Assembly: GCA_964016885.1 (NCBI GenBank)
Contig: OZ024740.1
Location: 433,814,001 to 433,878,000, forward strand
From: Eledone cirrhosa
Taxonomy: Eukaryota
DNA length: 64,000 nt
Reading direction: 5' to 3'
A program made the position numbers and the translations under genes. Shown here one piece after another: positions 2,931 through 29,832 of this stretch; position 1 is the first letter of the stretch, and every line of letters starts with the position of its first letter. The notes beneath the pieces were generated by a model. It did not search any database, was not told where the DNA came from, and saw nothing but the letters and a program-made list of their open reading frames with translations.

Positions 2931-3669
2931 TAAGAAGTTCAGGGAGCTACTACCACTGCTAGCTGCAAAAGGCTTTTCCCTCAAAATGAAAGGCAGACTG
3001 TATGATGCGTGTATCCGAACAGCAATGTTACATGGTAGTTAGACCTGGGCGCCGTCTGTGGAAGGCTTGCATAGATTAGAAAGAAACGAAGCCTGCATGC
3101 TCCGATGGATGTGTAACAGTAATATACGTGAACGGCAAAACATAAATGAATTGAGAGAGAGACTGAGCATAAGAGGAATCAAATGCTGTGTGCAGGAGAG
3201 GCGGTTGCGTTGGTATGGACATGTGATGCGTATGAAGGATGACAGCTGCATAAAAAGGTGCAGAGCACTAGAAGTCGATGGAAACCGCGGAGTGGGGAGA
3301 TCGAAGAAGACCTGGGATGAGGTGATAAAAGCCGACCTTACCCAATTACACCTCTCATGACCTTGACCTCTGGCGTCTCGCAGTAATACAGAGTCCCGAC
3401 CTCCCATGGGTACAAGCTGAAGCATATAGACAATATGCCCCCACACCCTCCCACTGTAAAGTGGTCGTGGAGGTGCCACGGCAAAAAAGCACCCAGCCCA
3501 CACTGAAAATGAGGTTGGTGTTAGGAAGGGCATCCAGCTGTAAAAATCAAGCCAAAATCAGTTCCTATATGAGCAAGACAAGGTCAGCTGACCAGACACT
3601 ACCCACAACAGGACAACCCGTCTAACCCATGTTAGCGTGGAAGAACGGCCGTAAAATGGTGATGATGAT
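2931..3669 (+). mobile_element. 5'-truncated RTE-clade LINE fragment (ORF C-terminus, 3'UTR, GAT tail)
   Basis: ORF 3058-3360 (RLERNEACMLRWMC...RRLRWYGHVMR...KKTWDEVI) closely matches the end of the 25455-26666 ORF. It shares the 3'UTR and ends in (GAT)n. Confidence 0.9.
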
Positions 3670-3693
3670 TGATATTAGTTCACACTATAATAA

Positions 3694-3900: not shown

Positions 3901-4007
3901 ATAATAATATCAGCTATAATGATGTGTAATTTCAGGTGTGAGGTAAAGCATTAAACATGCTAAACCCATAACTTCAGTTTCATTTCTGTGAAGTAATTCC
4001 TATAGTG

Positions 4008-4153
4008 AACAGTGAATTGTGAAAGTCGTTAGAACGTCAGATAGCTTTGTGGTATCCAGCTCTCTACTCTCTCAGATCAAATCCAACTGAGATCAACTTT
4101 GCCTTTAATCCATTCAAGGTTGATAACAAAATGTACCAGTCTAGTACTGGGGT
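4008..4153 (+). mobile_element. tRNA-derived SINE, degenerate
   Basis: CAGATCAAATCC (decayed B box) followed by CAACTTTGCCTTTAATCCATTCAAGGTTGATAA...GTACCAGT, the same core as 3694-3900 in the opposite orientation. Confidence 0.65.
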
Positions 4154-4635
4154 CTATTCTTCCTCTATATCTCTCACTTCCTCATCCTTTATACTTCTCT
4201 GGAAGAAATCTGCTGTATTCAGACCTGGAGAGGAGATGGGCTCCACCAGATTTCAATATAACACCTCTACAACTCCCCCAACAGTTACGGGACCAACAAT
4301 TACTATGGTCGTCTCGGCTTCATGTTTATAAAAGAAATAAGTGGCCAGAGCTTAGACCTGAAATAAATTTCCAGTGATCAGAATTCATGACTTGGTTTTG
4401 ATTTCCTGCTGAAGCCAGTTTATTTCACTTGAGTTCCTAATAAAACTTCATTATAGAAACTGCCCAACTTTCTATTTCGCATAAGCTATCTGCTTAACCT
4501 TTTAGCATTTAAACTGGTCATATCTGGCCTTAATTCTCTCACCTCTTTCTGCTCAAACTGGTCGTAACTAGCTGCTCATAACAATGTTAAGGTATTGTTC
4601 TCAAAATAAATAATATCAAAATGTCGTAGATTCAA

Positions 4636-4965
4636 TATTATGTGAGGTAAAGCCTTTATCATGAAAATACAATAGTAAATATAGCGTAATGTAAATATTA
4701 TGTGAGGTAAAGCCTTTACTATGAAAATACAATATTATATATAGAGTAATGTAAATGTTACGTGAGATATTATGTGAGGTAAAGCCTTTACTGTGAAAAT
4801 ACAATAGTATATATATAGAGTAATGTAAATGTTATGTGAGATATTATGTGAGGTAAAGCCTTTACTGTGAAAATACAATAGTATATATAGAGTAATGTAA
4901 ATGTTATGTGAGATATTATGTGAGGTAAAGCCTTTACTGTGAAAATACAATAGTATATATAGAGT
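4636..4965. repeat. 72-bp (and 60-bp) minisatellite, array A
   Basis: Unit ATTATGTGAGGTAAAGCCTTTACTGTGAAAATACAATAGTATATATAGAGTAATGTAAATGTTATGTGAGAT. The first unit is the 60-bp form lacking the 12-bp internal duplication. Confidence 0.95.
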
Positions 4966-5202
4966 GGTTTCTTTATTTGCCACTAGGGCACAAAAGGTAG
5001 GGACAGATACAAGGGGGGAAGTTTACATATAATTAACGAGTATAAAAATATAACAATGAAATAACAACAACAAACGAAGTCCTCAATAGGGAGGGGGCAT
5101 TAACATGGGTCGCACACACCCCGGAAAAAATGTGCAACCCTTCTCCTCAGGAGCACAAAGAGTAGGTGCTTCCCTCGTCTCCTCTTTTTCCTCTTCTTTC
5201 AC

Positions 5203-8200
5203 CTACAGGCTGATATAGAGAGAAGACCCATTCACTCTGGCCATTCTCCCTACTTTCACCCACCTTTCATAAAACTTGCTGGGGTAGAGCACCTCTCTCT
5301 CCATTCTGATCCTTCTTTTAAAATGGTATTTGAAAAAGGGGACCAGTTGTTGGCCGGAGAGAAAGGTGTCTGACCTCAGCCCTTTCAGCCTCGTCGACCA
5401 TACAACTTCTTTAGCGATGGCTATCACACAGAGAAAAACCGCCTCTCCTTCGTTTTTGAAAGGGGGAGGCGGTTTGATCGTGACAATGGACTCGGTGGTC
5501 AACCGGATTGGGGCCACCCTCGACAGTAGTCGTTCCACATAGCCCCACAGGTCAGCAATGCCTGGGCAGTGTACGAATGCGTGCGCAACGGTTTCGTCAT
5601 CATGCACGCATCTCGGACAGATCTTATTCAAAGGATCTCTACCCAGGCTCCCATGCCTGTGGAGCTTGTCTCGAACGGGTAGAGCCCCTCGGTAGCACTG
5701 CCAAGCCAGGGACTTTTGGAAGTTGTCCATCGGTCCAGGGCCAAACGTCCTACCGAACAGACTGGCCAGTTCATCTTTCTCCATGCCTAGAGCTTCTCCG
5801 AGAGCATCGCCGCACCTGCTGCGTACCAACCCTCTATAGAATGTCGAGGTGGAGTCTCCACTGATTGCCGGGTCCGCTTTCCAGAGGGCCGTGAGCGCCT
5901 GGGCACATTCAATGTGCCAGTCGCCCACTTTTCTCGGTCTTTGCTTGACCCAGGATTGCAGCTCGGTGAGCGAGACGAGTCTGGGAAAGGCTCGCCTCAC
6001 AAACGGGGCCCACACCGGTTGACCGGTGAGGAATACCTGGAGGTGCCGTAGCCTTAATGCGTGTTTACGCATCTGTAGCCACGGCATCCCCAGCCCTCCT
6101 TTCGAAGGGTGTTGACAGCAGATGGATCTCCTCACCAAAGGGGTCCGCTTGTTCCAAAGAAATTGGAACAGTGCGCACTCCATTTTGGCGAGTCTTTTCA
6201 CTGGGCAAGGCACGACGGTCAAGCGGTAGTAGATGACGGATGCTATATAAGTATTCGCCACCTCCGCTCGACCTTTCAGGGATAGTTTGCACTGGGCCCA
6301 CTTCTGGGTGAGTGCAAACACCCTGGCCGTTACCTCGTTCCAGTTTTTCTCCTGGAGGTCTGGTCCGAACCAGACCCCAAGCAGCTTCACCGGGCCCTCC
6401 GTCCAGCGTCCGACGACGTCGTTGGAGGGCATCGGTTTGCCTCTCCATGTTCCGAGTTGCAAACCGACGGACTTGTCCCGGTTCAGCTTGGCTCCCGTAA
6501 ACCTTTCATATTCCTCCAGTAAGGTGCCGATCTCACCGATTTGCGAGGTTTTCGACACCATTACTGTCACGTCATCGGCGTAGGCCGACGCCGCTTTCTG
6601 CAATCCCGGTTCCAAAGGGATGCCCAGCAACCGCTCTAACTTCCGCAGTAGTGGCTCAAGAGCCAGCACATACAGTAGGGAGGAGAGAGGGCTTCCCTGT
6701 CGGATGGATCGCATGATTTGGAACGGCTCCGAGAGGTGGCCGTTCACCTTGACCCTTGAGCAGACGTTGCTGCTGTGCATCGCAGCAATCCAACCCCTGA
6801 AAACGGGTCCGAAGCCTGCCGCCGCGAGCACCGCATCCAGGTAACGATGGTCAACCCTATCGAAAGCTTTAGATTGATCCAAGTTGATCAGGGCCCCACC
6901 AAAGCCGGGTTCATTCCCTACCCTCTCTATGATGTATCGCATAAGGTGGAGATTGTCGTGAATGGACCTGGACGGGATTGCGCATGTCTGCGCTTCTCCC
7001 ACCAGGTTTCCGACGACAAGCACCAACCTCTTCGCTAACACCTTGGCCAAAATCTTTAACTCTGTATTTAGCAGAGTTATGGGCCTTAAGTTACTTATGT
7101 CATCCCCCTTGTTCTCATCCTTCCTCACCAGCGTAACTACGCCCTTGGTCACAGAACTGGGAATTCTCCCGTTCTGCTGCCAGTTGCAGTAGACCGCTTC
7201 GAGGATATCGGAGAACAAGTCCGGCATCGCTACATATAGCTCGTATGGTAGACCATCGAGACCCGGGGATTTGCGTTTGCCGCATTGGCTCAGCGCCGCC
7301 CCTATCTCAGCAGCTGAAATCGTCCTTTCGCAGGACTTCGCCTCCGCGTCCGAGAGGCGCGGCAGACCGTCGAGGTATGGATTGAAATCCATAGTCTCAC
7401 CCGGCGCGCAGCCCCTCTCGAACAGTCGTGCAAAGTGCCGCTGAAAGGCCGTACACATCTGCCCAGGTTCAAGGATCATACGCCCATCCTGGTCCTTCAA
7501 AGACCGAATCGTGGACTTGTTCCCACTTTTTTCCTCTGTCACTCGGGCCCAGCTCACAGCTTTGGCTCCCTCATTACCCAGAGCACGTATTTTACTCCTG
7601 ACAACGCAGCCTTCATGCTTCACCTCAAAGAACTGGTCTAAGGCCATTCTTGATGCTAGCACGCCGGCTACATTGCCACTCCTAATCGCCTCTTCTACTC
7701 TATCTACTAATTCCCTTTCCGTCTTGTTCCTATCCCTTGCTAATTCCTGACTAAAACCTATCGATTCTATTCTAATTGCTCTCTTAAGAGAGCTCCACCA
7801 CCTGTTGTTGACAATTGCCCCTGTCAAACTCTGCTTAACTAACGTGCTAATCCGTTTACTGTAAGCTTTGCTTCTCAGTAAGGACAAGTTCATCTTCCAG
7901 TAACCGGGTCCCTGTCTATGGGTTCTATCAAGGTTGGCTATGCAGGTCACTAACTTGTGATCCGAATAGTCAACCATGAACATTTTTGGACAGCTAAATG
8001 TGTCCCTATCCTTCTCTCTAACTAGGACCCTATCTAGGTACGGCCTAGATGTTCCGCTAAAATTGGTCCACGTCCATAGTGGTACAGTCGGAAAATCTAG
8101 TCGATATCTATCGGCCAGGTCAAATCGGCCGATTAACCTTTTGAGGCTTTTACACCCCCCTCTATTGGCACATGCCCCTACATAGTCCCAACGTGCATCC

Positions 8201-8637
8201 AGGATACCATTCCAGTCCCCCACTAAAAGCAAGGAGCGGGACGTTCCCAGAAAAGTTTCCAGACGTTGGAAGTATTCCGGCCGCGCTACCCAAAAAGGGG
8301 CGTACACAGCTATTAGTCTAAGGGCTCCACTTTCACTACTGCCGACGTCTAAAACCACCAGTCGACCCTCCGGGTCCAGGTGCACCTTCTGTATGGCGAG
8401 GCCCAGGTGTTTTCGCAGCAGAACGACAACTCCACCCCCACCCCCCGGTTGACAGAGAGATGCGAAGATCTCAAAGTCGTCGAAGAGGGGCGCCAGTTGG
8501 TGCTCGCTGCTGATCCTGGACTCGCAAATAGCCATTACATCCATTCTATGCGACCTGAGATCGTTTAAAAGTTTGCCTTGTTTCCAAGACAGTCCCAGGC
8601 CACGTACATTCAGACACCCAACTCTTATATCAGCCAT
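5203..8637 (-). CDS. LINE ORF2p: AP-like endonuclease, reverse transcriptase, C-terminal CCHC zinc finger (1144 aa)
   Basis: EN motifs LNVRG, AICES, VYAP, GDWN, LDRV, SDH. RT motifs KSPGLDG, RPITLLN, DQSKAFDRVDH, IRQGSPLS, YADD, KLLGV. GGLG motif and CPRC-x8-H-x4-C. PGYWKMN and the overall architecture are typical of Tx1/L1-clade elements. Confidence 0.96.
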   Translation of the reverse strand: MADIRVGCLNVRGLGLSWKQGKLLNDLRSHRMDVMAICESRISSEHQLAPLFDDFEIFASLCQPGGGGGVVVLLRKHLGLAIQKVHLDPEGRLVVLDVGSSESGALRLIAVYAPFWVARPEYFQRLETFLGTSRSLLLVGDWNGILDARWDYVGACANRGGCKSLKRLIGRFDLADRYRLDFPTVPLWTWTNFSGTSRPYLDRVLVREKDRDTFSCPKMFMVDYSDHKLVTCIANLDRTHRQGPGYWKMNLSLLRSKAYSKRISTLVKQSLTGAIVNNRWWSSLKRAIRIESIGFSQELARDRNKTERELVDRVEEAIRSGNVAGVLASRMALDQFFEVKHEGCVVRSKIRALGNEGAKAVSWARVTEEKSGNKSTIRSLKDQDGRMILEPGQMCTAFQRHFARLFERGCAPGETMDFNPYLDGLPRLSDAEAKSCERTISAAEIGAALSQCGKRKSPGLDGLPYELYVAMPDLFSDILEAVYCNWQQNGRIPSSVTKGVVTLVRKDENKGDDISNLRPITLLNTELKILAKVLAKRLVLVVGNLVGEAQTCAIPSRSIHDNLHLMRYIIERVGNEPGFGGALINLDQSKAFDRVDHRYLDAVLAAAGFGPVFRGWIAAMHSSNVCSRVKVNGHLSEPFQIMRSIRQGSPLSSLLYVLALEPLLRKLERLLGIPLEPGLQKAASAYADDVTVMVSKTSQIGEIGTLLEEYERFTGAKLNRDKSVGLQLGTWRGKPMPSNDVVGRWTEGPVKLLGVWFGPDLQEKNWNEVTARVFALTQKWAQCKLSLKGRAEVANTYIASVIYYRLTVVPCPVKRLAKMECALFQFLWNKRTPLVRRSICCQHPSKGGLGMPWLQMRKHALRLRHLQVFLTGQPVWAPFVRRAFPRLVSLTELQSWVKQRPRKVGDWHIECAQALTALWKADPAISGDSTSTFYRGLVRSRCGDALGEALGMEKDELASLFGRTFGPGPMDNFQKSLAWQCYRGALPVRDKLHRHGSLGRDPLNKICPRCVHDDETVAHAFVHCPGIADLWGYVERLLSRVAPIRLTTESIVTIKPPPPFKNEGEAVFLCVIAIAKEVVWSTRLKGLRSDTFLSGQQLVPFFKYHFKRRIRMEREVLYPSKFYERWVKVGRMARVNGSSLYISL

Positions 8638-8658
8638 GTTGGTTAACAGAGGAAGGAC

Positions 8659-10392
8659 CTACCTGTTCGGCTCCTGAGGAGCAGGTTGCACAATATCCAT
8701 GGGCGTATTGGAGGGGTTGTTTGGTGGGGTGTTGTTCTGTGGTGGAGTGGGGGTGTTTGGTGAGGTGTGGGTGGGGAAACGTTTCAAGAGGACGCGGTTA
8801 TAGGGTCGAGTACATGTTTTCCCCACGTCCTCAGGAAAGTTCTCTCTTAGTTTTGCATAGGTGTCCATTGGGAGTCTTATCATTTTTAAATGCGGTTTGT
8901 TGGCCGCGCTTGCAAAGAATTGCCCTTCAGTTTCCACCGAAGGGTCTTTGTGTATTGTTTTTACTAGTTCTTTGTTATTTGTGTTAATGTATGCATACTG
9001 TTTTATTTGTGTTGTGTTTGTTTGTTGTTCTTGTGTGTGCTTACGTTTTGTTGTATGTGTTATGTTTTGGGGTGGGGAGGATTTTGTTTGTTCTGTTTGT
9101 TTTGTTTTTGTTGGTGGTTGTGTGTTTGTTTCGTTTATGTTCGAGTGGTGCTTTCTTTTTTTCCTTTTTACAGGTTGGAAGGGTTCCCCCTCTTCGTCAC
9201 TAGGTGCCGTTTCCGCTGGGTCCTCGTCCGTGCTGTCGGGTAGTGGTGTATTTGGGGGTTTTGTTGTATTTGTGTGTGTTTTGGGAGTTGTTTTGGGTGG
9301 GGCCGTGTCTTGTGTTATTTTTCCGTGTTGTTTTTGTTGTTGTTGTGGTGGTGGTGGTGGAGGTGGTGGTGGCGGCGGTGGTGGTGTGTGGGGTGTAGGC
9401 AAAAGAGCCTTTTTTTTTGTCAATTGAGGACAAGCAGCCCTTAGATGACCCCTGCTTGAACAGTAGTAACATATGGGCCTCCTACCCTCGGCTGAAATAT
9501 ATATAAATGTTTCTCCATCGAGGGACACCCTCTGTGGTATTCTAGCTATTCGTTCTGGTCTCATTTGGACCAGAACCTCCACGCTCAAACCGCCGAAAAC
9601 GTCTGTGGTGACTTCTCCTACTGAAAGGATTCCGTCCTCGTCTTCTAAAAATCCTGTTAGTACCCAGGAAATGCATGCATTTGGCCGGATTCCGGAGACC
9701 CTTATCTTCTGCGTTCTTTTCCCTAAATATGTGGGGAAAAATGTATGTAGCTTGGAAACAATTGGCGTCACAGAGTATTTCCTGGCCGTCAATTGATCCT
9801 TCATTAGGACCGTTATATTCCCATAGAGTGGCCCTTTTTGTATGAACGATATATCACTCCACACATTTTTTAGGACCAGCTCAATCTCTTTTTGGGATAA
9901 TTGAGTTGGTTTCCTTGTTATGTTAGAAATTGTTCTGAAAGATATCGTTCTTAGCGTCGTGTCTCTTTTGATTTCTTGTGGGGAGGTGATTGTGAAGTCT
10001 CCTCCTTCTTTGAAAGTTACATACTGTTTCGCTTCCTTCATCTTTTCTCTCAGAGTTGTAATGTCCAGTTGCTTGCAGGTTTGTGTTTTCCGGACCGCCT
10101 GTGCAAAAGAGGCACCAGTAGTGGGTTCGCTTTGTTTGGTGTTATCGTTATTTTTTCCTTCGTTGGTGTTGTGACTATTGCTGTTATTGTCGTTGTTGTT
10201 TTTGTCTGCGTTTATGTGACTTTCTGGGTTTTCACCCATTTTTACAAATTTTTCTTTTAATTCCGTGTTCCATGTTTCTTTTGCAGAAGTGAGGAGGGAA
10301 GACTTAGAGCCTTGTGCTTCTAGCTTCTCTGTATCACCTTTCTTAGGGGGCGTGGCTTTCACGTTAGGATGAGATGTGAAAATTCCGTCCAT
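8659..10392 (-). CDS. LINE ORF1p, gag-like nucleic-acid-binding protein with zinc knuckle (577 aa from first ATG; frame open to 10485)
   Basis: CYYCSSRGHLRAAC = CX2CX4HX4C; SFAQAV motif; Pro/Gln/Thr low-complexity tail with basic KRKKRK. Lies directly upstream of ORF2. Confidence 0.9.
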   Translation of the reverse strand: MDGIFTSHPNVKATPPKKGDTEKLEAQGSKSSLLTSAKETWNTELKEKFVKMGENPESHINADKNNNDNNSNSHNTNEGKNNDNTKQSEPTTGASFAQAVRKTQTCKQLDITTLREKMKEAKQYVTFKEGGDFTITSPQEIKRDTTLRTISFRTISNITRKPTQLSQKEIELVLKNVWSDISFIQKGPLYGNITVLMKDQLTARKYSVTPIVSKLHTFFPTYLGKRTQKIRVSGIRPNACISWVLTGFLEDEDGILSVGEVTTDVFGGLSVEVLVQMRPERIARIPQRVSLDGETFIYISAEGRRPICYYCSSRGHLRAACPQLTKKKALLPTPHTPPPPPPPPPPPPPQQQQKQHGKITQDTAPPKTTPKTHTNTTKPPNTPLPDSTDEDPAETAPSDEEGEPFQPVKRKKRKHHSNINETNTQPPTKTKQTEQTKSSPPQNITHTTKRKHTQEQQTNTTQIKQYAYINTNNKELVKTIHKDPSVETEGQFFASAANKPHLKMIRLPMDTYAKLRENFPEDVGKTCTRPYNRVLLKRFPTHTSPNTPTPPQNNTPPNNPSNTPMDIVQPAPQEPNR

Positions 10393-10602
10393 TTCAATTA
10401 GTTTGCCGTAATAAATTTTTAACTGGAAAATTCGCCCCAAAAAGGGGCGAAAATAAATAAACTCAAAGTTTGACGACCAAGGCAAGGGGTTAACGTATAT
10501 TACAGTATAAAAAAATTAATCAAAACTCACTTTTGAGTAAGTAAATCCGACTCGGTAGCCGAGCTTGTTCACACACGTCAACACACGTCTCTCGTATACG
10601 AG

Positions 10603-11243
10603 ATGTTATGTGAGATATTATGTGAGGTAAAGCCTTTACTATGAAAATACAATATTATATATAGAGTAATGTAAATGTTATGTGAGATATTATGTGAGGT
10701 AAAGCCTTTACTGTGAAAATACAATAGTATATATAGAGTAATGTAAATGTTATGTGAGATATTATGTGAGGTAAAGCCTTTACTGTGAAAATACTATAGT
10801 AAATATAGAGTAATGTAAATGTTATGTGAGATATTATGTGAGGTAAAGCCTTTACTATGAAAATACAATAGTATATATAGAGTAATGTGAATGTAATGGA
10901 GATATTATGTGAGGTAAAGCCTTTACTGTGAAAATACTATATTATATATAGAGTAATGTAAATGTTATGTGAGATACTATGTGAGGTAAAGCCTTTACTG
11001 TGAAAATACAATAGTATATATAGAGTAATGTAAATGTTACGTGAGATATTACGTGAGGTAAAGCCTTTACTATGAAAATACAATAGTATATATAGAGTAA
11101 TGTGAATGTAATGGAGATATTATGTGAGGTAAAGCCTTTACTGTGAAAATACTATAGTAAATATAGAGTAATGTAAATGTTATGTGAGATATTATGTGAG
11201 GTAAAGCCTTTACTGTGAAAATACAATAGTATATATAGAGTAA
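10603..11243. repeat. 72-bp minisatellite, array B (about 9 units) between the two LINEs
   Basis: Same unit as array A. The variant GTGAATGTAATGGAGAT occurs twice (about 10887 and 11102). Confidence 0.95.
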
Positions 11244-11478
11244 TTTCTTTATTTGCCACCAGGGCACAAAAGATAGGGACAGATACAAGGGGGGAAGTTT
11301 ACATATAATTAACGAGTACAAAAATATAACAATGAAATAACAACAACAAACGAAGTCCTCAATAGGGAGGGGGCATTAACATGGGTCGCACACACCCCGG
11401 AGAAAATGTGCAACCCTCCTCCTCAGGAGCACAAAGAGTAGGTGCTTCCCTCGTCTCCTCTTTTTCCTCTTCGTTTAC

Positions 11479-14400
11479 CTACAGGCTGATATAGAGAGAA
11501 GACCCATTCACTCTGGCCATTCTCCCTACTTTCACCCACCTTTCATAAAACTTGCTGGGGTAGAGCACCTCTCTCTCCATTCTGATCCTTCTTTTAAAAT
11601 GGTATTTGAAAAGGGGGACCAGTTTTTGGCCGGAGAGAAAGGTGTCTGACCTCAGCCCTTTCAGCCTCGTCGACCATACAACTTCTTTAGCCATGGCTAT
11701 CACACAGAGAAAAACCGCCTCTCCTTCGTTTTTGAAAGGGGGAAGCGGTTTGATCGTGTCAATGGACTCGGTGGTCAACCGGATTGGTCCCACCCTCGAC
11801 AGTAGTCGTTCCACATAGCCCCACAGGTCAGCAATGCCTGGGCAGTGTACGAATGCGTGCGCAACGGTTTCGTCGTCATGCACGCATCTCGGACAGATCT
11901 TATTCAAAGGATCCCTACCCAGGCTCCCATGCCTGTGGAGCTTGTCTCGAACGGGTAGAGCCCCTCGGTAGCACTGCCAAGCCAGGGACTTTTGGAAGTT
12001 GTCCATCGGTCCAGGGCCAAACGTCCTACCGAACAGACTGGCCAGTTCATCTTCCTCCATGCCTAGAGCTTCTCCGAGAGCATCGTCGCACCTGCTGCGT
12101 ACCAACCCTCTATAGAATGTCGAGGTGGAGTCTCCACTGATTGCCGGGTCCGCTTTCCAGAGGGCCGTGAGCGCCTGGGCACATTCAATGTGCCAGTCGC
12201 CCACTTTTCTCGGTCTTTGCTTGACCCAGGATTGCAGCTCGGTGAGCGAGACGAGTCTGGGAAAGGCTCGCCTCACAAACGGGGCCCACACCGGTTGACC
12301 GGTGAGGAATACCTGGAGGTGCCGTAGCCTTAATGCGTGTTTACGCATCTGTAGCCACGGCATCCCCAGCCCTCCTTTCGAAGGGTGTTGACAGCAGATG
12401 GATCTCCTCACCAAAGGGGTCCGCTTGTTCCAAAGAAATTGGAACAGCGCGCACTCAATTTTGGCGAGTCTTTTCACTGGGCAAGGCACGACGGTCAAGC
12501 GGTAGTAGATGACGGATGCTATATAAGTATTCGCCACCTCCGCTCGACCTTTCAGGGATAGTTTGCACTGGGCCCACTTCTGGGTGAGTGCAAACACCCT
12601 GGCCGTTACCTCGTTCCAGTTTTTCTCCATCTGGAGGTCTGGTCCGAACCAGACCCCAAGCAGCTTCACCGGGCCCTCCGTCCAGCGTCCGACGACGTCG
12701 TTGGAGGGCATCGGTTTGCCTCTCCATGTTCCGAGTTGCAAACCGACGGACTTGTCCCGGTTCAGCTTGGCTCCTGTAAACCTTTCATATTCCTCCAGTA
12801 AGGTGCCGATCTCACCGATTTGCGAGGTTTTCGACACCATTACTGTCACGTCATCGGCGTAGGCCGACGCCGCTTTCTGCAATCCCGGTTCCAAAGGGAT
12901 GCCCTGCAACCGCTCCAACTTCCGCAGTAGTGGCTCAAGAGCCAGCACATTCAGAAGGGAGGAGAGAGGGCATCCCTGTCGGATGGATCGCATGATTTGG
13001 AACGGCTCCGAGAGGTGGCCGTTCACCTTGACCCTTGAGCAGACGTTGCTGCTGTGCATCGCAGCAATCCAACCCCTGAAAACGGGTCCGAAGCCTGCCG
13101 CCGCGGGCACCGCATCCAGGTAACGATGGTCAACCCTATCGAAAGCTTTAGATTGATCCAAGTTGATCAGGGCCCCACCAAAGCCGGGTTCATTCCCTAC
13201 CCTCTCTATGATGTATCGCATAAGGTGGAGATTGTCGTGAATGGACCTGGACGGGATTGCGCATGTCTGCGCTTCTCCCACCAGGTTTCCGACGACAAGC
13301 ACCAACCTCTTCGCTAACACCTTGGCCAAAATCTTTAACTCTGTATTTAGCAGAGTTATGGGCCTTAAGTTACTTATGTCATCCCCCTTGTTCTCATCCT
13401 TCCTCACCAGCGTAACTACGCCCTTGGTCACAGAACTGGGAATTCTCCCGTTCTGCTGCCAGTTGCAGTAGACCACTTCGAGGATATCGGAGAACAAGTC
13501 CGGCATCGCTACATATAGCTCGTATGGTAGACCATCGAGACCCGGGGATTTGCGTTTGCCGCATTGGCTCAGCGCCGCCCCTATCTCAGCAGCTGAAATC
13601 GTCCTTTCATAGGACTTCGCCTCCGCGTCCGAGAGGCGCGGCAGACCGTCGAGGTATGGATTGAAATCCATAGTCTCACCCGGCGCGCCGCCCCTCTCGA
13701 ACAGTCGTGCAAAGCACCGCTGAAAGGCCGCACACAGTCTGCCCAGGTTCAAGGATCATACGCCCATCCTGGTCCTTCAAAGACCGAATCGTGGACTTGT
13801 TCCCACTTTTTGCCTCTGTCACTCGGGCCCAGCTCACAGCTTTGGCTCCCTCATTACCCAGAGCGCGTATTTTACTCCTGACAACGCAGCCTTCATGCTT
13901 CACCTCAAAGAACTGGTCTAAGGCCATTCTTGATGCCAGCACGCCGGCTACATTGCCACTCCTAATCGCCTCTTCTACTCTATCTACTAATTCCCTTTCC
14001 GTCTTGTTCCTATCCCTTGCTAATTCCTGACTAAAACCTATCGATTCTATTCTAATTGCTCTCTTAAGAGAGCTCCACCACCTGTTGTTGACAATTGCCC
14101 CTGTCAAACTCTGCTTAACTAACGTGCTAATCCGTTTACTGTAAGCTTTGCTTGTCGGTAAGGACAAGTTCAGCTTCCAGTAACCGGGTCCCTGTCTATG
14201 GGTTCTATCAAGGTTGGCTATGCAGGTCACTAACTTGTGATCCGAATAGTCAACCATGAACATTTTTGGACAGCTAAATGTGTCCCTATCCTTCTCTCTA
14301 ACTAGGACCCTATCTAGGTACGACCTAGATGTTCCGCTAAAATTGGTCCACGTCCATAGTGGTACAGTCGGAAAATCTAGTCGATATCTATCGGCCAGGT

Positions 14401-14917
14401 CAAATCGGCCGATTAACCTTTTGAGGCTTTTACACCCCGCTCTATTGGCACATGCCCCTACATAGTCCCAACGTGCATCCAGGATACCATTCCAGTCCCC
14501 CACTAAAAGCAAGGAGCGGGACGTTCCCAGAAAAGTTTCCAGACGTTGGAAGTATTCCGGCCGCGCTGCCCAAAAAGGGGTTTACACAGCAATTAGTCTA
14601 AGGGCTCCACTTTCACTACTGCCGACGTCTAAAACCACCAGTCGACCCTCCGGGTCCAGGTGCACCTTCTGTATGGCGAGGCCCAGGTGTTTTCGCAGCA
14701 GAACGACAACTCCACCCCCACCCCCCGGTTGACAGAGAGATGCGAAGATCTCAAAGTCGTCGAAGAAGGGTGCCAGTTGGTGCTCGCTGCTGATCCTGGA
14801 CTCGCAAATAGCCATTACATCCATTATATGCGACCTGAGATCATTTAAAAGTTTGCCTTGTTTCCAAGACAGTCCCAGGCCGCGTACATTCGGACACCCA
14901 ACTCTTATATCAGCCAT
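11479..14917 (-). pseudogene. ORF2 of LINE copy 2, broken
   Basis: Premature TAA at 14582-14584 and a +1 frameshift near 13737 split it into the 111-, 278- and 757-aa ORFs. Otherwise near-identical to 5203-8637. Confidence 0.93.
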
Positions 14918-14938
14918 GTTGGTTAACAGAGGAAGGAC

Positions 14939-16686
14939 CTACCTGTTCGGCTCCTGAGGAGCAGGTTGCACAATATCCATGGGCGTATTGGAGGGGTTGT
15001 TTGGTGGGGTGTTGTTCTATGGTGGAGTGGGGGTGTTTGGTGAGGTGTGGGTGGGGAAACGTTTCAAGAGGACGCGGTTATAGGGTCGAGTACATGTTTT
15101 CCCCACGTCCTCAGGAAAGTTCTCTCTTAGTTTTGCATAGGTGTCCATTGGGAGTCTTATCATTTTTAAATGCGGTTTGTTGGCCGCGCTTGCAAAGAAT
15201 TGCCCTTCAGTTTCCACCGAAGGGTCTTTGTGTATTGTTTTTACTAGTTCTTTGTTATTTGTGTTAATGTATGTATACTGTTTTATTTGTGTTGTGTTTG
15301 TTTGTTGTTCTTGTGTGTGCTTACGTTTTGTTGTATGTGTTATGTTTTGGGGTGGGGCGGATTTTGTTTGTTCTGTTTGTTTTGTTTTTGTTGGTGGTTG
15401 TGTGTTTGTTTCGTTTATGTTCGAGTGGTGCTTTCTTTTTTTCCTTTTTACAGGTTGGAAGGGTTCCCCCTCTTCGTCACTAGGTGCCGTTTCAGCTGGG
15501 TCTTCGTCCGTGCTGTCGGGTAGTGGTGTATTTTGGGGTTTTGTTGTGTTTGTGTGTGTTTTGGGAGTTGTTTTGGGTGGGGCCGTGTCTTGTGTTATTT
15601 TTTCATGTTGTTTTTGTTGTTGTTGTTGTGGTGGTAGTGGTTGAGGTGGTGGTGGTGGTGGCGGTGGTGGTGTGTAGGCAAAAGAGCCTTTTTTTTGGTC
15701 AATTGAGGACAGGCAGCCCTTAGATGACCCCTGCTTGAACAGTAATAACATATGGGCCTCCTACCCTCGGCTGAAATGTATATAAATGTTTCTCCATCGA
15801 GGAACACCCTCTGTGGTATTCTAGCTATTCGTTCTGGTCTCATTTGGACCAGAACCTCCACGCTCAAACCGCCGAAAACGTTTGTGGTGACTTCTCCTAC
15901 TGAGAGGATTCCGTCCTCGTCTTCTAAAAATCCTGTTAGTACCCAGGAAATGCATGCATTTGGCCGGATTCCGGAGACTTTTATTTTCTGCGTTCTTTTC
16001 CCCATATATGTGGGGGAAAATGTGTGTAGCTTGGAAACAATTGGCGCCACAGAGTATTTCCTGGCCGTCAATTGATCCTTCATTAGCACCGTTATATTCC
16101 CATAGAGTGGCCCTTTTTGTATGAACGATATATCACTCCACACATTTTTTAGGACCAGCTCAATCTCTTTTTGGGATAATTGAGCTGGTTTCCTTGTTAT
16201 GTTGGAAATTGTTCTGAAAGATATCGTTCTTAGTGTCGTGTCTCTTTTGATTTCTTGTGGGGAGGTGATTGTGAAGTCTCCTCCTTCTTTGAAAGTTACA
16301 TACTGTTTTGCTTCCTTCATCTTTTCTCTCAGAGTTGTAATGTCCAGTTGCTTGCAGGTCTGTGTTTTCCGGACCGCCTGTGCAAAAGAGGCACCAGTAG
16401 TGGGTTCGCTTTGTTTGGTGTTATCGTTATTTTTTCCTTGGTTGGTGTTGTGACTATTGCTGTTGTTGGTCGTGCTGTTATTGTCATTGTTGTTTTTGTC
16501 TGCGTTTATGTGACTTTCTGGGTTTTCACCCATTTTTACAAATTTTTCTTTTAATTCCGTGTTCCATGTTTCTTTTGCAGAAGTGAGGAGGGAAGACTTA
16601 GAGCCTTGTGCTTCTAGCTTCTCTGTATCACCTTTCTTAGGGGGCGTGGCTTTCACGTTAGGATGAGATGTGAAAATTCCGTCCAT
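14939..16686 (-). pseudogene. ORF1 of LINE copy 2, broken
   Basis: Net -1 frameshift at the poly-Pro tract (about 15640-15680), premature TAG at 15017-15019, and an in-frame 15-bp insertion relative to copy 1. Confidence 0.9.
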
Positions 16687-16896
16687 TTCTATTAGTTTGC
16701 CGTAATAAATTTTTAACTGGAAAATTCGCCCCAAAAAGGGGCGAAAATAAATAAACTCAAAGTTTGACGACCAAGGCAAGCGGTTAACGTATATTACAGT
16801 ATAAAAAAATTAATCAAAACTCACTTTTGAGTAAGTAAATCCGACTCGGTAGCCAAGCTTGTTCACACACGTCAACACACGTCTCTCGTATACGAG

Positions 16897-17246
16897 ATGT
16901 TATGTGAGATATTATGTGAGGTAAAGCCTTTACTGTGAAAATACAATAGTATATATAGAGTAATGTAAATGTTATGTGAGATATTATGTGAGGTAAAGCC
17001 TTTACTGTGAAAATACAATAGTATATATAGAGTAATGTAAATGTTATGTGAGATATTATGTGAGGTAAAGCCTTTACCGTGAAAATACAATAGTATATAT
17101 AGAGTAATGTAAATGTTATGTGAGATATTATGTGAGGTAAAGCCTTTACTGTGAAAATACAATAGTATATATAGAGTAATGTAAATGTTATGTGAGGTAA
17201 AGCCTTTACTGTGAAAATACAATAGTATATATTGAGTAATGTAAAT
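16897..17246. repeat. 72-bp minisatellite, array C, running into the MITE right terminus
   Basis: Units start at 16911, 16983, 17055, 17127. The last unit is 60-bp and is followed by GCTAAATGGTTAA. Confidence 0.95.
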
Positions 17247-17395
17247 GCTAAATGGTTAAATGTAGTCAATTGAAACAGCCAGCACTTGTTTGCAATGTTT
17301 TTAAATGTTGATATTAAAAGACGCCCTAATAAATTGTTTAGTCTATGAGGTTTAAATACTGTTAGAAGAAAGTAGGAAGGAAATAAACAGAGAAT

Positions 17396-17725
17396 ATTAT
17401 TAACACTGTTGCTACAGTGTTAATAATGAAATACACTGCCTATGTCTCTCAACACTGTTGCTACAGTGTTAATAAAGAAATACACTGCCCCTGTCTCTCA
17501 ACACTGTTGCTACAGTGTTAATAATAAAATGCACTCTCTATCTCTGTCAACACTGTTGCTACAGTGTTAATAATGAAATACACTGTCTATGCCTCTCAAC
17601 ATTGTTGCTACAGTGTTAATAATAAAATACACTGCTGCTACAGTGTTAATAACGAAACACACTGCCCATGTCTCTCAATTAACACTTTCACAATAGTGTT
17701 TATAATGAAATACACTGCCTATGTC
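17396..17725. repeat. Degenerate 49-bp minisatellite with palindromic core, about 6-7 copies
   Basis: AACACTGTTGCTACAGTGTTAATAA at 17402, 17451, 17500, 17549, 17598. Confidence 0.88.
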
Positions 17726-18439
17726 TATCAATTCATTTTGAAAATTTGAAGAATCTAATAAAATATTTAGTAAGCTAATGTTTGAAATATTACTGAACAA
17801 AAATATCTTAAAATTATAATGAAAGGTTGTGTAACATAAAACTGGGGTGGATTTAGGTGGGTTGTTATCAAAAAGGTTAAGGACGTGACAACCAAATCTA
17901 TAGTCGTTGTATGACAGATAACAATAAGATTATCATTCTAGACAGATGAGTCATAAATTATTCCCCCACACAGGGTTAGATAAATACCAATACTACTATA
18001 TAAAAGTGCCAGCCAGTGTGTTGATCAGTGGACATAGCAGTCTACCTGGTCATGTAGCAGCAATTGGATACTCTCCTCAAAAGAGTTTCTTTCACACTAT
18101 CATGTGGCCACCATTAAGATGGCCTTCAATGGCCTCATAAATAAGTTTCCATAGTAAATCGGTTTGTAGTTGCCAATATGTCATAGAAAACAGTCATCTG
18201 CTTGTTCTTGTATTCCAAAGACAGGATGAGAGATAGTGATGAATAGCTGGCTCCCAGAGTCAATGAAGGCAGTTGCAAAGTTGATTCCGAGCAGTTAAGA
18301 TGTAGTTAACTGTGTCACACAGACCCATTTAGGTCTCTCACTCTCACTCTTGGTCTCTCTCATTGCCAGGCCAACATCCATCATCCCATTACAGAAGTGT
18401 GGTAAATAACATCTTTTGAATCATTGCACATGTGCATAC

Positions 18440-19050
18440 ATTTGGAGAAGTAGCGGCTCTATGGTCGCTGAGCTATGCACTCTATTGAGTAATGTTACCC
18501 CAAGGACCCTTCAGAGGAACCCCATTTTGGACGCTTGAATTCGCGATCGTATTCTTTCGGCCATTACTCAAGATTCATGAATATAGGTAAGGGTTGGCAC
18601 GAATACCGAATTGAGGATAGCGAGTTTACCTTTTACACCTACCTCCCTTCTTCTGACTACTGAATGCTGAAGCTGGTGCATTACTGCACCAGCTTCTGCA
18701 ATTCTTGCACTTAATTCAGCCTCCTTCCTTCCATCACTCATGAATACGGCCCCGAGATACTTGAACTTTTCTACCTGCTTCAGTGGAACTCCATTTACAT
18801 GTAGAGTGCATGTGCAGGGTTCCTTGAGAGGAAGGGTGTCTCAGTTTTCACAGCACTGATTTTCATTCCAGCCATGCAACACTCTGCATCAAACCTATCG
18901 AGTGCAAGTCAAAGATCACCTTCCGTCAAGTTAAGTAACACCATGTCGTCTGCAAATTCAAGTCAACTGATTTTACACCCGCCAGTCATGATACCCCTTC
19001 CCACCCAGCTACACATGTCAATCCTGTTCATGTGAATAATGAATAGGAGA
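18440..19050 (-). pseudogene. Decayed RT fragment of an RTE-clade (Expander/Rex3-like) LINE
   Basis: Manual minus-strand translation with stops and frameshifts: LLFIIHMNRID...EFADDMVLL...LALDRF...GMKIS..KTE...LKQVEKFKYLG...PTLTY.HES*VMAERIRSRIQA. Confidence 0.8.
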
Positions 19051-19124
19051 GCTGTTTCCTTCTAGCTTTATTTTGTCATTTTCATATTTTTTCTGTATGT
19101 GTTTTTGTCCTTATCTAACCAACC

Positions 19125-20090
19125 TCATATTACATCTACTTTCCACACTGGCATGTGTTGGAGAGGTTGTCACAGTCTGAGACCAGACTTTCCACACTGG
19201 CATGTGTTGGAGAGGTTGTCACAGTCTAAGACCAGACTTTCCACACTGGCATGTGTTGGAGAGGTTGTCACAGTCTGAGACCAGACTTTCCACACTGGCA
19301 TGTGTTGGAGAGGTTGTCACAGTCTGAGACCAGACTTTCCACACTGGCATGTGTTGGAGAGGTTGTCACAGTCTGAGACCAGACTTTCCACACTGGCATG
19401 TGTTGGAGAGGTTGTCACAGTCTGAGACCAGACATTTGGGAGTGACCTCATCTTACTCATACATTACATATTTAGCATGGTTTCTATGGCTGGATGCACT
19501 TTACAATGGATAGATTGTTTTTGCAATACCAGCACAACCACAGGACTAGGTATATTGTATCAAGGTACCAACACTAGCAATTTGCAAGATGTACTGAGTG
19601 TATTTTATTATGTCACTAGTACTAAAGAAGTTGTTATATTCTCGACTAGACGAAAGTGTTCCCTTAAACCCTTAAACCCTTAAGTGTTCCCTTAAACCTT
19701 AAGTGTTCCCTTAAACCCTGTATTGTCTTCATTTGATTACCAAACATTGTAGCCTCCCATCTCCCACCACATTTACCTTTATTGTCTTACTACTTGTACT
19801 GGGGGACATGTCTTTTATATTATAGTATATTATCAATCAGCTGTCTTGTGTCATCTCCTTTCTTGATGTCATTCTTTACAACTTCGTCCCATATTTTCCT
19901 TGATCAAGAGTTTGGCACTTTTTTTTATCCAATCTCACTCTCCTGTATCACATATACATATCAGAGTAATCATCACTCTTACACAGTATATTTAATTAAA
20001 ATATTCTCTCAACTCTCTTATACTCTGTCATTCACATACACTAATATTGCACATCCAGTGAAGTCACTGCAAATATTCTGACCAGTTATA
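19125..20090 (-). mobile_element. Old, degraded RTE LINE 3' portion
   Basis: Begins TTTCCACACTGGCATG, resembling the reverse complement of the RTE 3' end at about 27015-27035. GGTTTCTATGGCTGGATGC at about 19480 matches 29980-29998, and decayed GHVMR-region sequence lies near 19940-19980. Confidence 0.55.
19138..19433. repeat. 49-bp minisatellite, 6 near-perfect copies
   Basis: ACTTTCCACACTGGCATGTGTTGGAGAGGTTGTCACAGTCTGAGACCAG at 19138, 19187, 19236 etc. Confidence 0.97.
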
Positions 20091-20230
20091 CAGAAATCTA
20101 ACATGGAAGTATACATAATTGTATAGAGGCTTATATAGAAACATATATGATATTTATGTATAACAAACATACATAAGTCTCACTTTGATCATGTCAACGT
20201 GACCTCAATAACTGAGAACACCAAATATTA

Positions 20231-20860
20231 CAGGGATGCTCAGTTCTTGGAAGGCATGTCTTTTAATAGCTCTAAATTTGTTCTAACTTGTTCTGATTTA
20301 TCATTTCTTTTCAGATAAATAATGACAGACATCGAGGTACCCTAACAAATTAAACTGTAATTGTTGCCTTAACCCTTTAGCATTCACATTTCTCTATTAT
20401 TTACTACTGTATTTTCATGGTAAAGGCTTTATATCACATGACATTGAATCTATGAGATTTTAATATTTATTTTGAGAACAATACCTTAACATAAGTATGA
20501 GCAGCCAGTTATGGCTGGTTTAAATAGAAAAAGGTGAGAGAATTCTGGCCACATATGGCTGGTTTAAGTGCTAAAGGTAGAACATAGTGATTTAGAGATT
20601 GTTCACTTCTTGAAAGTTGCATGGTCGTTTGTTATGAAAGCTCTCAAAGAGCTGGAAGTCACTAACAGGGATTCTGCAGCAGTAGCCAAATGTAAAATGT
20701 TTGCTAATGGTCCTAATACCATCAGAACACTCAAATTTTGTATGAAAGGGGCAGCAAATAATCGATAAGAACTCCAGAAAGTCAATTAGTGCTATTGCTA
20801 GGGAGCTTAAGATTTTAAGGCACACTATCAGAAAAATTGTGCTTGAGGACCTTCGATATT
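20231..20860 (+). mobile_element. 5' fragment of a Tc1/mariner (maT-like) transposon, interrupted by a MITE
   Basis: Starts TA|CAGGG. Decayed N-terminal HTH reads MTDIE..VIVAL[MITE]EHSDLEIVHFLKVAWSFV...IIDKNSRKSISAIARELKI..HTIRKIVLEDLRY. Confidence 0.65.
20369..20578 (-). mobile_element. About 210-bp piggyBac-like MITE (unexpanded sibling of the 4494-17259 element)
   Basis: TTAA|CCCTTTAGCATT ... GTGCTAAAGG termini. Contains a single diverged copy of the 60/72-bp unit (TACTGTATTTTCATGGTAAAGGCTTTATATCACAT). Confidence 0.85.
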
Positions 20861-21806
20861 TTTTGTTAAAAATATAGTTCCCATTGTCAAAGGGATAAAA
20901 CTAAAGAACCTAGAAGAGAGCACAACTAAATTGCTACCCCCCCCCCCAACCGCGAGGAGGGGAATCCCCCCCCCTCCCCCAGCCCTGATAATGACTTCAG
21001 CCATTATCTACTATCACTCACGCACGGAAACCATTGAGGGGTCCTCTATGTGATAATGTTGAAATCTAGACCACTTACAACAGATAAAACATGACATTAT
21101 TACATTACTTTATTCCACCCAGATAAATTCATATGAATAATAAATCAGTTTTATTGAAGGGAAGTTTCTGTTTAACCTTCTCATAACAACCTGCTGCAAA
21201 CTGCCATTTTAAACGGTTCCTATGTAAATTAAAATATTCCAACATGATTTCATATAAAAACCATGTTTTGTTGTAAATACCATTCTAATATTTCTTGGCA
21301 TTAGGACCAGCAATTTGAAATTAGCTAAAAACAACAAAACCTAAGTCAGCCGTGCGTTGACCAGTGTAATTATATCCAAGGTGTGTAGTTATGTGAAACT
21401 CCGATTGTTTTTTCACAGACCCCTACTTTATCTACAAACCTGGGCATTCCTGACTGGCTTCGGGATACTATTCATGAATAACATGTAAAGCAAAAAATTG
21501 TAGAGAAATCTCCAGGGAAGGGGGTGGGGACCATGTCACCCCTTTCATTCTCCGGGGGGAAAAAGTTGATTGCCAGAATCTTGGAGGTTAAATTAGTTGA
21601 TAACACACAAAAAAGCTGAGAGGAAAAAATGTTCCCACTGAAATCGAGTGGGGTGTTCTATAGATTTACTGAAAAATCATTATTATAAATATGATGTTTC
21701 GTATATTTATTGTGTACGTGGTATATGTTCATGTGTGTAGAGTGTATGTATATATATATATATATATATACAATAAATGTAATCTGAGTTATTCGAATAT
21801 TAATAA

Positions 21807-21895
21807 TTGTTTCTACTTTTTGGCACAAGGCCAGCAATTACCCAGTGCATTACTGGTACTTTATTTTATCGACCCCGTAAGGATGAAAGGCAAAA
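21807..21895 (-). mobile_element. SINE fragment
   Basis: TTCTACTTTTTGGCACAAGGCCAGC...TGCATTACTGGTACTTTATTTTATCGACCCCG is nearly identical to 3699-3765. Confidence 0.7.
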
Positions 21896-22171
21896 ATAAC
21901 ATTCAATTCGTTTGCAATTATGCAAACAAGCCTCAATTTTATAGCCATGTCAGTAGAATGAACCCTTCATTCTTGCTCTTGTGTATGCAGTTCTGTTCAT
22001 ATCCCAACACAAGAGCAAGAATGAAGGGTTCATTCTACTGACATGGCTTTAAAATTGAGGCATGTTTGCATAATTGCAAACGAATCGAATGTTATTATTA
22101 ATATTTTAAAAACTCAGATTACATTTATTGTATTCAGCCATGTAGAGCAAAAATTTTCTTTTTATATATAT

Positions 22172-24769: not shown

Positions 24770-25005
24770 ATATATATATATATATATCGTTTCTGAATTT
24801 GTTTAGCAAGATTCTTTATCTGAAAACGTGTGTTGAAACCGATATTGTTATACTTTGGTAGGGTCATGTTGCCAATAAGAAACACACGCACCAGTTGCTT
24901 TCACTTCAATTTATTATAAATTAAATTATAAATTTAAGAAATTTATAAATTTCCGGTTGGTTGGTTGGTTGGTTGGTTCCACAATCGGACGGTTGTTCAT
25001 ATATT

Positions 25006-25048
25006 GTCAAAGTTCTTTCGTCACACATTATGTGACCTCTTCAGTGAC
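25006..25048 (-). ncRNA. Candidate minimal hammerhead ribozyme motif (mirror copy)
   Basis: Reverse complement reads GTCACTGAAGAGGTCACATAATGTGTGACGAAAGAACTTTGAC. Confidence 0.55.
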
Positions 25049-25243
25049 TGGGGATTCTTCTCTTTGTTTCGTGCCTCTCCTTTGTTCTGTCCTACGCCAT
25101 CTTGTTTTTGAAAAAACAAGATGGCGTAGAACAAAACAAAAAGAAGAATCCCCAGTCACTGAAGAGGTCATCTTGTTTTTGAAAAAACAAGATGGCGTAG
25201 GACAGAACAAAGGAGAGGCACGAAACAAAGAGAAGAATCCCCA

Positions 25244-25286
25244 GTCACTGAAGAGGTCACAGAATGTGTGACGAAAGAACTTTGAC
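25244..25286 (+). ncRNA. Candidate minimal type I hammerhead ribozyme motif
   Basis: GTCA-CTGAAGA-G-GTCACA(GAATG)TGTGAC-GAAA-G(AA)C-TT-TGAC: stem I GTCA/TGAC, CUGANGA, stem II, GAAA, minimal stem III, CUU triplet. Confidence 0.55.
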
Positions 25287-25454
25287 AATTTATGAACAAC
25301 CGTCCGGTTGTGGAACCAACCAACTGGAAATTTATAAATTTCTTAAATTTATAATTTAATTTATAATAAATTGGAGTGAAAGCAACTGGTGCGTGTATTT
25401 CTTATTGGCAACATGACCCTACCAAAGTATAACAATATATATATATATATATAT

Positions 25455-26666: not shown

Positions 26667-27075
26667 ATACATAGTAAAACCTACTACAGCCAGTAGGCAT
26701 CTCTAACAAAATACCCCCCCCACCCCCACCCCCGTCCCACCACCCCCACCCCATCCACGCAACCCCGTTCTATGTAAAGTTGTGTTGGTGCCACACCATC
26801 CAGGCCGAAACAAATGAGATCGTGTAGGTGTCACGACAAAAAAACACACAGTCCACGCTGTAATGTGGCCGTGTAGGCAACACGGTAAAAACCTCCCAGA
26901 CCCACACTGTAAATGTGGTTGGTGTTAGGAAGGGTATCCAACTGTAGAAAACCTGCCAGACAGTCCTATGCGAGCAAGACAATCACTCTTGCCTCAAGTG
27001 GGACTACCCCCGTCCAAACCCATGCAAGCGTGGAACACGGACGTTAAACGTTGATGATGATGATGATGATGATGA
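25455..27075 (+). mobile_element. RTE-clade LINE, 5'-truncated, with 3'UTR and (GAT)n tail
   Basis: Starts abruptly at AFDRVPR after (TA)n. 3'UTR 26667-27050 resembles 3361-3660. Tail 27052-27075. Confidence 0.93.
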
Positions 27076-27149
27076 TATATATATATATACAGAGAGAGAG
27101 AGAGAGAGAGAGAATTGTGTATGTTAATATATTGGTAGAGTGTATATAT

Positions 27150-28833: not shown

Positions 28834-28889
28834 TGTTGTGTATGTCAATATATTGGTAGAATGTGTGTGTATATATACATATATACACA

Positions 28890-29766: not shown

Positions 29767-29769
<3 letters not shown>
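28890..29769 (+). mobile_element. Internally deleted Tc1/mariner transposon, DD37D (maT) family
   Basis: Imperfect TIRs CAGGGTGCGGACGATATTTGTTCACAA / TTGCGAACAGATATCATTCGCACCCTG in TA-rich flanks. Transposase remnant WQQDSAPCH...WPPSSPDCNPRN has 37 residues between the second D and the mutated third position. Confidence 0.88.

Positions 29770-29832
<63 letters not shown>

Follow-up and report, generated by a model that had tools for sequence, protein, structure and literature searches.

A 64,000-nt stretch of the Eledone cirrhosa genome (assembly GCA_964016885.1, contig OZ024740.1, positions 433,814,001 to 433,878,000; in the following called the window and numbered from its first letter) contains an array of 72-bp tandem repeats that is interrupted twice by 5.6-kb copies of a long interspersed nuclear element (LINE). 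Both copies lie on the minus strand and interrupt the array in identical phase. The array itself is not a free satellite but the amplified inner right end of a TTAA-flanked mini DNA transposon. This host transposon begins with a TTAA at 4494-4497, a putative target duplication, which is followed on the plus strand by a 14-bp terminal inverted repeat (4498-4511, matching the right repeat at 13 of 14 positions) as part of an unamplified left arm (4498-4634, 82% identity to a related monomer at 20369-20577). The left array block (4635-4965, plus strand) consists of one 60-bp unit and subsequent 72- or 74-bp units, the final one being cut at GAGT. LINE copy 1 (4968-10602) is separated from LINE copy 2 (11244-16896) by a middle block of 8.9 units (10603-11243, plus strand) exhibiting variants that are not present in either outer block. 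In the right block (16897-17241, plus strand) 72-bp units are succeeded by 60-bp units leading into the right end of the host. The right 14-bp inverted repeat (17242-17255, minus strand) and the right TTAA (17256-17259) complete a composite of about 12.76 kb from TTAA to TTAA.

An empty unit reads GAGTAA-TGTAA-ATGTTATGTGAG on the plus strand. At copy 1 the LINE is preceded by GAGTGG, at copy 2 by GAGTAA; in both copies the plus-strand terminus of the LINE is CTCGTATACGAG, and the array then resumes at ATGTTATGTGAG. Relative to the empty unit, TGTAA is absent at both sites. The target loss is nominally 5 bp, with a range of 4-7 bp given the ambiguities of the junctions: it is 4 bp if the junction T belongs to the target, 6 bp if the A at 10603 is part of the element, and 7 bp if two junction bases are filler. 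The 3' junctions are not the same. GG replaces the target AA at copy 1 (4966-4967, plus strand), representing either untemplated filler or a later double change, whereas copy 2 retains AA. A short target duplication was rejected, as no exact match of 2-39 bp was detected at either LINE. The first-pass annotation, made from the letters alone, had placed both LINEs at one junction of the 72-bp unit, with about 4-5 target bases missing and with neither a short target duplication nor a poly(A) tail. Our reading of the junctions and of the LINE ends bears out all of this and adds the difference between GG and AA. The chance of a common phase is 1 in 72 (1 in 144 including orientation), a value valid only for independent insertions. 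The common phase is meaningful only if the two copies are independent. A preference for a target sequence is common in the Tx1 clade, though not universal; here, two of two copies lie in one phase at a single locus, their independence not being proven.

The two full-length copies show 97.9% identity and differ by 96 substitutions and 4 indels, a fifth gap in the comparison being an artefact of end trimming. In copy 1 (5635 bp) both open reading frames (ORFs) are open, whereas copy 2 (5653 bp) contains one stop and one frameshift in each. ORF2 of copy 1 (5203-8658, minus strand; 1151 aa stop to stop, first ATG at 8637) encodes an apurinic/apyrimidinic (AP)-type endonuclease, a reverse transcriptase and a C-terminal zinc domain, with Pfam matches to Exo_endo_phos (29-234), RVT_1 (519-763) and zf-RVT (982-1038). 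The catalytic residues of the endonuclease align with those of the L1 ORF2 protein (ORF2p), and among solved structures human L1 ORF2p came out as the closest (E about 1e-51). ORF1 of copy 1 (8659-10515, minus strand; 618 aa stop to stop, first ATG at 10392) contains one CCHC knuckle, the corresponding zf-CCHC match being weak and below the cut-off (E 0.007). Proteins resembling ORF1 in their features belong to clusters of CCHC and ZCCHC3-type RNA-binding domains (0.90-0.92). No ORF1 homologue was present among 944 candidates, and no Pfam match at E up to 0.1 pointed to an L1-type ORF1 with coiled coil, RNA recognition motif and C-terminal domain.

In sense direction the LINE ends with AATAAAGAAA, and no A tail follows in either copy. 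An AATAAA is located 4 nt from the 3' end of copy 1 (4972-4977, minus strand) and is the sole such hexamer in the 235-nt 3' untranslated region (UTR). The 5' end of copy 1 forms a perfect palindrome (10590-10603) of 12 bp within the element and 14 bp with the next base, which would be its length if A10603 belonged to the element; the end of copy 2 is alike. The 5' region folds somewhat better than shuffled sequences (z -2.5; 4 of 200), the 3' end does not (z -0.3). A Rfam scan of 4000-21000 yielded two weak microRNA matches only, both outside the element, and the 72-bp unit was accordingly rejected as an RNA gene.

In the Tx1 clade, ORF1 comprises one or more RNA-binding domains and a CCHC knuckle. 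The combination of AP-type endonuclease, reverse transcriptase and C-terminal zinc domain in ORF2 that is typical of this clade was found in the present LINE. The traits of the strict L1 clade, namely a 3' poly(A) tail, a T-rich nick site and a short target duplication, were not found. Judged by sequence, and with a tree that contains no named Tx1 reference, the LINE is likely Tx1-like. A protein search gave 90 matches, among which Argonauta hians provided the only named close one (67% across 41% of the searched region). The tree has 28 rows, the query and 27 of the 90 matches (21 close unnamed and 6 named ones, other partial or low-identity unnamed matches being omitted); in it the query clusters with the Argonauta hians protein and a further, unnamed match (support 100/98), while the deeper forks are not resolved. 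This grouping points to an octopod as the host of the LINE. A repeat survey of Octopus vulgaris treats L1-Tx1 as a single class and counts its families and those of piggyBac, its passages on them naming no insertion targets (PMC13282606).

A scan with the 5' end of the LINE gave 0 matches in bacterial and archaeal contigs. With a 10-protein alignment, relatives were found at 41 loci, 39 of which (L001-L037, L040 and L041) lie on eukaryote-like contigs in one bacterial genome bin, at about 41% ORF2 identity. They form head-to-tail arrays with a period of about 6.4-6.9 kb and neighbours up to 99.65% identical. Since these 39 loci are tandem arrays of a eukaryotic LINE, the bin must hold host DNA. 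Among 50 distinct 3' ends of relatives, chosen by a conserved motif and AATAAA, none (0/50) exhibits an A run of at least 8 within the following 40 nt, indicating that a tail-less end just after AATAAA is a trait of the lineage. Behind the 3' end lies a linker of about 15-25 nt that is specific to the family, and then usually the next copy; linker variants tend to go with the 5' type of that next copy. Neither to the host transposon nor to the UTRs did the relatives give a meaningful DNA match (best E 0.26), and none of their sequences included the start of an array. Repeated insertion at one site and recombinational amplification account for their arrays equally well. A more distant Tx1-like LINE (L038, 3036-10170; 27% ORF2 identity) has the same domain layout and a short A tail. 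It sits between a whole U1 small nuclear RNA gene and a 3' fragment of U1, and its two sides carry a direct repeat of 163 bp that differs at one position. From its sequence context it may be a LINE that targets U1 and generates a very long target duplication.

The origin of the array can be read from the monomer at 20369-20577 (minus strand), an unamplified, LINE-free relative of the host of about 205 bp. It retains the TTAA at one end only and contains one degenerate target site. In alignments the monomer covers the left arm together with one unit, and likewise the last unit together with the right end. The source of the repeat is the last 60 bp of the host before its right end; 60-bp units remain at both edges of the array, and the inner units correspond to a 60-bp unit with a 12-bp duplication. 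With up to 3 mismatches allowed, a 16-mer around the insertion site has 17 matches within the array and one in the monomer, and the rest of the 64 kb contains none. Since amplification of the inner end of the host accounts for the array, no LINE need be invoked for its origin. It also turns over without the LINE, as near-identical unit pairs indicate: units 10759 and 11117 are identical and units 10831 and 11046 differ by one base, all of them lying away from either LINE. The idea that the LINE builds its own target array, raised in the first-pass annotation, is not supported in view of this internal amplification and of the unit duplications away from the LINEs. The start of the 12-bp duplication in every 72-bp unit (e.g. 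16969-16992) can be read exactly at the 5' junction of the LINE with one mismatch. The break of this duplication is without microhomology, and chance or slippage could explain its register.

The ends of piggyBac elements begin with CC. The host exhibits the traits of a miniature inverted-repeat transposable element (MITE) of piggyBac type, i.e. TTAA on both sides, short terminal inverted repeats and a CC start, the latter at all three host ends that follow an intact TTAA. Kolobok ends begin with a purine pair (PMC6004289). No autonomous piggyBac partner with matching ends was detected within the window.

We favour, with moderate confidence, two separate target-primed insertions at a fixed site by a Tx1-like LINE, which likely uses a sequence-specific endonuclease and a second nick about 5 bp upstream, the intervening bases being deleted. 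All enzymatic and RNA steps of the insertion given here are what we infer. The last 60 bp of the host would have been amplified, and the 12-bp duplication would have led to the 72-bp unit. ORF2p would nick the plus strand after GAGT(AA), where reverse transcription would be primed. The other strand would be nicked at TGTAA/ATG, about 5 bp upstream in element orientation, with loss of the bases between both nicks. RNA is cleaved about 10-30 nt beyond AATAAA. Because this hexamer is only 4 nt away from the LINE end, cleavage would fall in the downstream array, and the 3' end of the LINE RNA, consisting of array sequence, may pair with the primer, so that no A tail is copied. Pairing of RNA and target is discussed for SART1, too (PMC7265360). 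The 5' side would be joined flush and identically without microhomology, perhaps with the help of an RNA that starts in upstream array sequence. Help of this kind has been proposed for Drosophila R1A, and both it and the pairing at the 3' end for Drosophila R1 (PMC2718515). Insertion in internal units would spare the ends of the host, since these units are devoid of the outer part of the inverted repeat.

Within a repeat, a loss of 5 bp and a duplication of 67 bp yield one and the same junction, and for this reason unit variants on both sides of the LINEs were compared. The same ambiguity between deletion and duplication was noted for Utopia in U2 arrays (PMC4640811). Between the 67-bp flanks of copy 1 there are differences at positions 39 and 53, which are polymorphic in the array, in addition to the GG. 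The unit at 4695 contains the two variants in combination, so that they are old variants of the array and point mutation cannot explain them. At copy 2 the 67-bp flanks match with 0 mismatches. Duplications of 67 bp and 139 bp at copy 1 and of 139 bp at copy 2 were rejected due to mismatches, and no other length up to 329 bp gave an ungapped match at 85%. We regard it as improbable that the second nick was set one unit downstream, duplicating 67 bp and regenerating an intact site, with the duplicate at copy 1 overwritten later on by conversion from another unit. A downstream second nick is the usual geometry of the AP-endonuclease class, and the exact match at copy 2 agrees with it. Identical 67-bp flanks, however, also occur at 2 of 15 empty sites, and those of copy 2 represent the commonest unit type (7 of 18 in-phase unit cores). 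Long duplications seem possible in the broad group in view of the 163-bp repeat flanking the L038 relative, and an exceptionally long one is on record for rotifer R9, according to the title of a work cited in PMC12203849. Such a duplication alone would result in no net growth of the array, because recombination between the duplicates restores the former unit number. We give even less credence to a LINE that shaped and renews its own target, by a 67-bp duplication per insertion, with the 12-bp duplication as a footprint of the same endonuclease or of target RNA on the 5' end of the LINE and with the 12.8-kb composite spreading LINEs and array as a DNA transposon. Of the two options left by the first-pass annotation, the best supported is precise cleavage accompanied by a small loss of target sequence, whereas duplication of one unit minus 5 bp conflicts with copy 1 and is compatible with copy 2 only. 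The earlier interpretation, which considered neither the host transposon nor common descent of the copies, is supported in part.

A single unequal crossover, by which one insertion could have been copied, does not fit the flank haplotypes. The middle block differs from the expected right-flank prefix plus left-flank suffix by mismatches at 39, 53, 182, 193 and 200 within the first 216 bp on one side; on the other side, 7 mismatches fall in the range of 82-135 bp. The differences between the copies in ORF1 comprise 25 silent and 18 replacement changes (ratio of replacement to silent rates, dN/dS, 0.21-0.28; p < 1e-4), and this skew to silent sites indicates that part of ORF1 diverged in active lineages. 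In the ORF1 tract at about 9200-10200 we observed 3-11% silent divergence between copies that are otherwise 1.3% divergent, which suggests gene conversion or template switching between subfamilies. The neutral part corresponds to about 0.65% per copy or about 1.8 million years (calibration from PMC13282606), ample time for turnover of the array. Altogether we consider two insertions about twice as probable as one insertion that was copied. In the latter case, unlikely but the main rival, unequal exchange between alleles or paralogous composites would have made the LINE tandem and conversion by a third copy would have patched ORF1; the common junction would be inherited and trivial for targeting. 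Such a history would account for the neutral divergence of ORF2 and of the last third of ORF1, for derived ORF2 replacements in both copies (10 and 14 of 31, with 7 unresolved, using 6 outgroup proteins) and for the nearly unchanged 5' UTR (3 of 210 sites differ). The private variants of the middle block would look as if taken from another array, adjacent double changes between the copies are enriched (4 observed vs 0.7 expected in 4232 bp), the relatives occur in near-identical tandem arrays, and a composite with TTAA and near-perfect ends could have moved as a whole. It requires, however, turnover of the array on both sides, conversion in ORF1 and, precisely at the 3' junction, a later change of two adjacent bases, the chance of which is about 0.1-0.4% with the excess of adjacent changes allowed for. 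Two haplotypes of one insertion joined in tandem by the assembly via the repeat might be suspected from the high identity of the copies and their position within a tandem repeat. This is hardly credible, as there are just one left and one right host arm, the middle block has private variants, and allelic noise does not look like 1.2 kb of sequence that diverged under selection by 5-11% at silent sites.

Several points weigh against our preferred reading of two insertions with a small deletion. The ORF2 differences are neutral-like (14 silent and 31 replacement changes; dN/dS 0.68-0.88), and the silent excess in ORF1 is limited to about 1.2 kb, being densest at 9752-9202 (0 of 100 permutations were as dense). 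The ORF1 mosaic is no proof of two insertions, because conversion is needed under any model, and the near-identical arrays of the relatives make recombinational amplification plausible in this lineage. The GG of copy 1 looks like untemplated filler, an awkward fit for priming by an annealed read-through transcript. Neither a ribozyme nor any other signal for 5' processing was found in the LINE; a home-made descriptor of HDV-like (hepatitis delta virus) ribozymes, run without a positive control and matching 2 of 100 random sequences, gave 0 matches at the 5' junction of either copy. The exact flanks of copy 2 belong here as well, and a deletion of 5 bp is indistinguishable from a loss of 5 bp plus whole units. 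Finally, there are two copies at a single locus without an empty allele, which is not enough to prove targeting.

Further repeats surround the composite. A satellite of at least 33 kb with 39- and 52-bp variants and a higher-order period of 91 bp occupies 30820-64000. Minisatellites were detected at 1-1233 (55 bp), 17402-17665 (49 bp), 19138-19433 (49 bp) and 27349-28020 (61 bp). The 61-bp minisatellite may be an amplified piece of a mobile element, because it runs into a LINE remnant on the reverse strand (28020-28840). A short element at 28888-29770, whose inverted ends lie in TA runs and whose transposase-like frame is degenerate, resembles a Tc1/mariner remnant. Decayed LINE remnants with terminal GAT/ATG repeats, which we take to be RTE-like from their look, are located at 2940-3670, 22190-24770 and 25450-27076. 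Long inverted repeats or near-palindromes at 2330-2890, 21760-22130 and 24830-25440 are probably other MITEs.

As far as our analysis goes, the finding is most likely a further case of a type with precedents in frog and crocodile, exhibiting a small-deletion junction. At present it has the status of a two-copy observation with good precedents. If true, it would provide a mollusc parallel to Tx1L in Tx1D, in which a LINE uses the internal repeats of a DNA transposon as a renewable safe site, and would add the small-deletion junction to such a setting. A natural AP-endonuclease with a defined short target would furthermore be useful for studying or engineering site-specific insertion. The locus also illustrates that a transposon-derived minisatellite and a LINE can nest without the LINE having made the array. 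We found no description of an octopus Tx1 target or of this pairing of LINE and array in the open-access literature; Repbase or Dfam may already contain the family.

Human L1 shares the endonuclease and reverse transcriptase motifs with the present LINE. It differs by its poly(A) tail, TTTT/AA target and short duplications, none of which was found here, and by another type of ORF1. The conversion of an internal MITE segment into a tandem repeat has a counterpart in Xenopus, where such a segment of the TTAA-type MITE Xmix was amplified into the tandem repeat Xstir (PMC6004289). The ends of Xmix are of the Kolobok type (AGG), whereas the present host starts with CC, and the account of Xstir in that paper mentions no LINE within the repeat. 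Full-length copies of R1A in the Drosophila melanogaster group exhibit a precise 9-bp deletion and little junction variation, and target sequence on both ends of the RNA was proposed as the cause (PMC2718515). The present element likewise is an AP-endonuclease LINE with a precise small deletion and an invariant 5' junction in its full-length copies (2 of 2). This likeness is one in working only, as R1A belongs to the R1 clade and targets 28S ribosomal DNA.

Crocodilian Tx1 families (Tx1-Mar, Tx1-9_AMi) prefer a site in Mariner or Harbinger elements and probably mobilise the SINEU elements, among which SINEU-2 is reported with target duplications and truncations (PMC4494074). The present LINE resembles them in its position at one site within a DNA transposon and, as regards SINEU-2, in the truncation of the target. 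In contrast to the dispersed transposon copies targeted in crocodilians, the target here is an amplified internal minisatellite, and the short duplication of SINEU-3 is absent from the present LINEs. Tx1L of Xenopus laevis reportedly generates a 23-bp target duplication, whereas about 5 bp are lost here. Its target Tx1D is said to contain internal tandem repeats. Host phylum and target sequence are different in our case, and for Tx1L genome-wide exclusivity is known. The endonuclease of Tx1L is described as sequence-specific (PMC1950540), and Tx1D, into which Tx1 inserts, as a non-autonomous piggyBac family (PMC4494074). Like Tx1L in Tx1D, the Eledone element is an AP-endonuclease LINE located at a fixed point of a non-autonomous DNA transposon of the TTAA type, both ends of which are intact.

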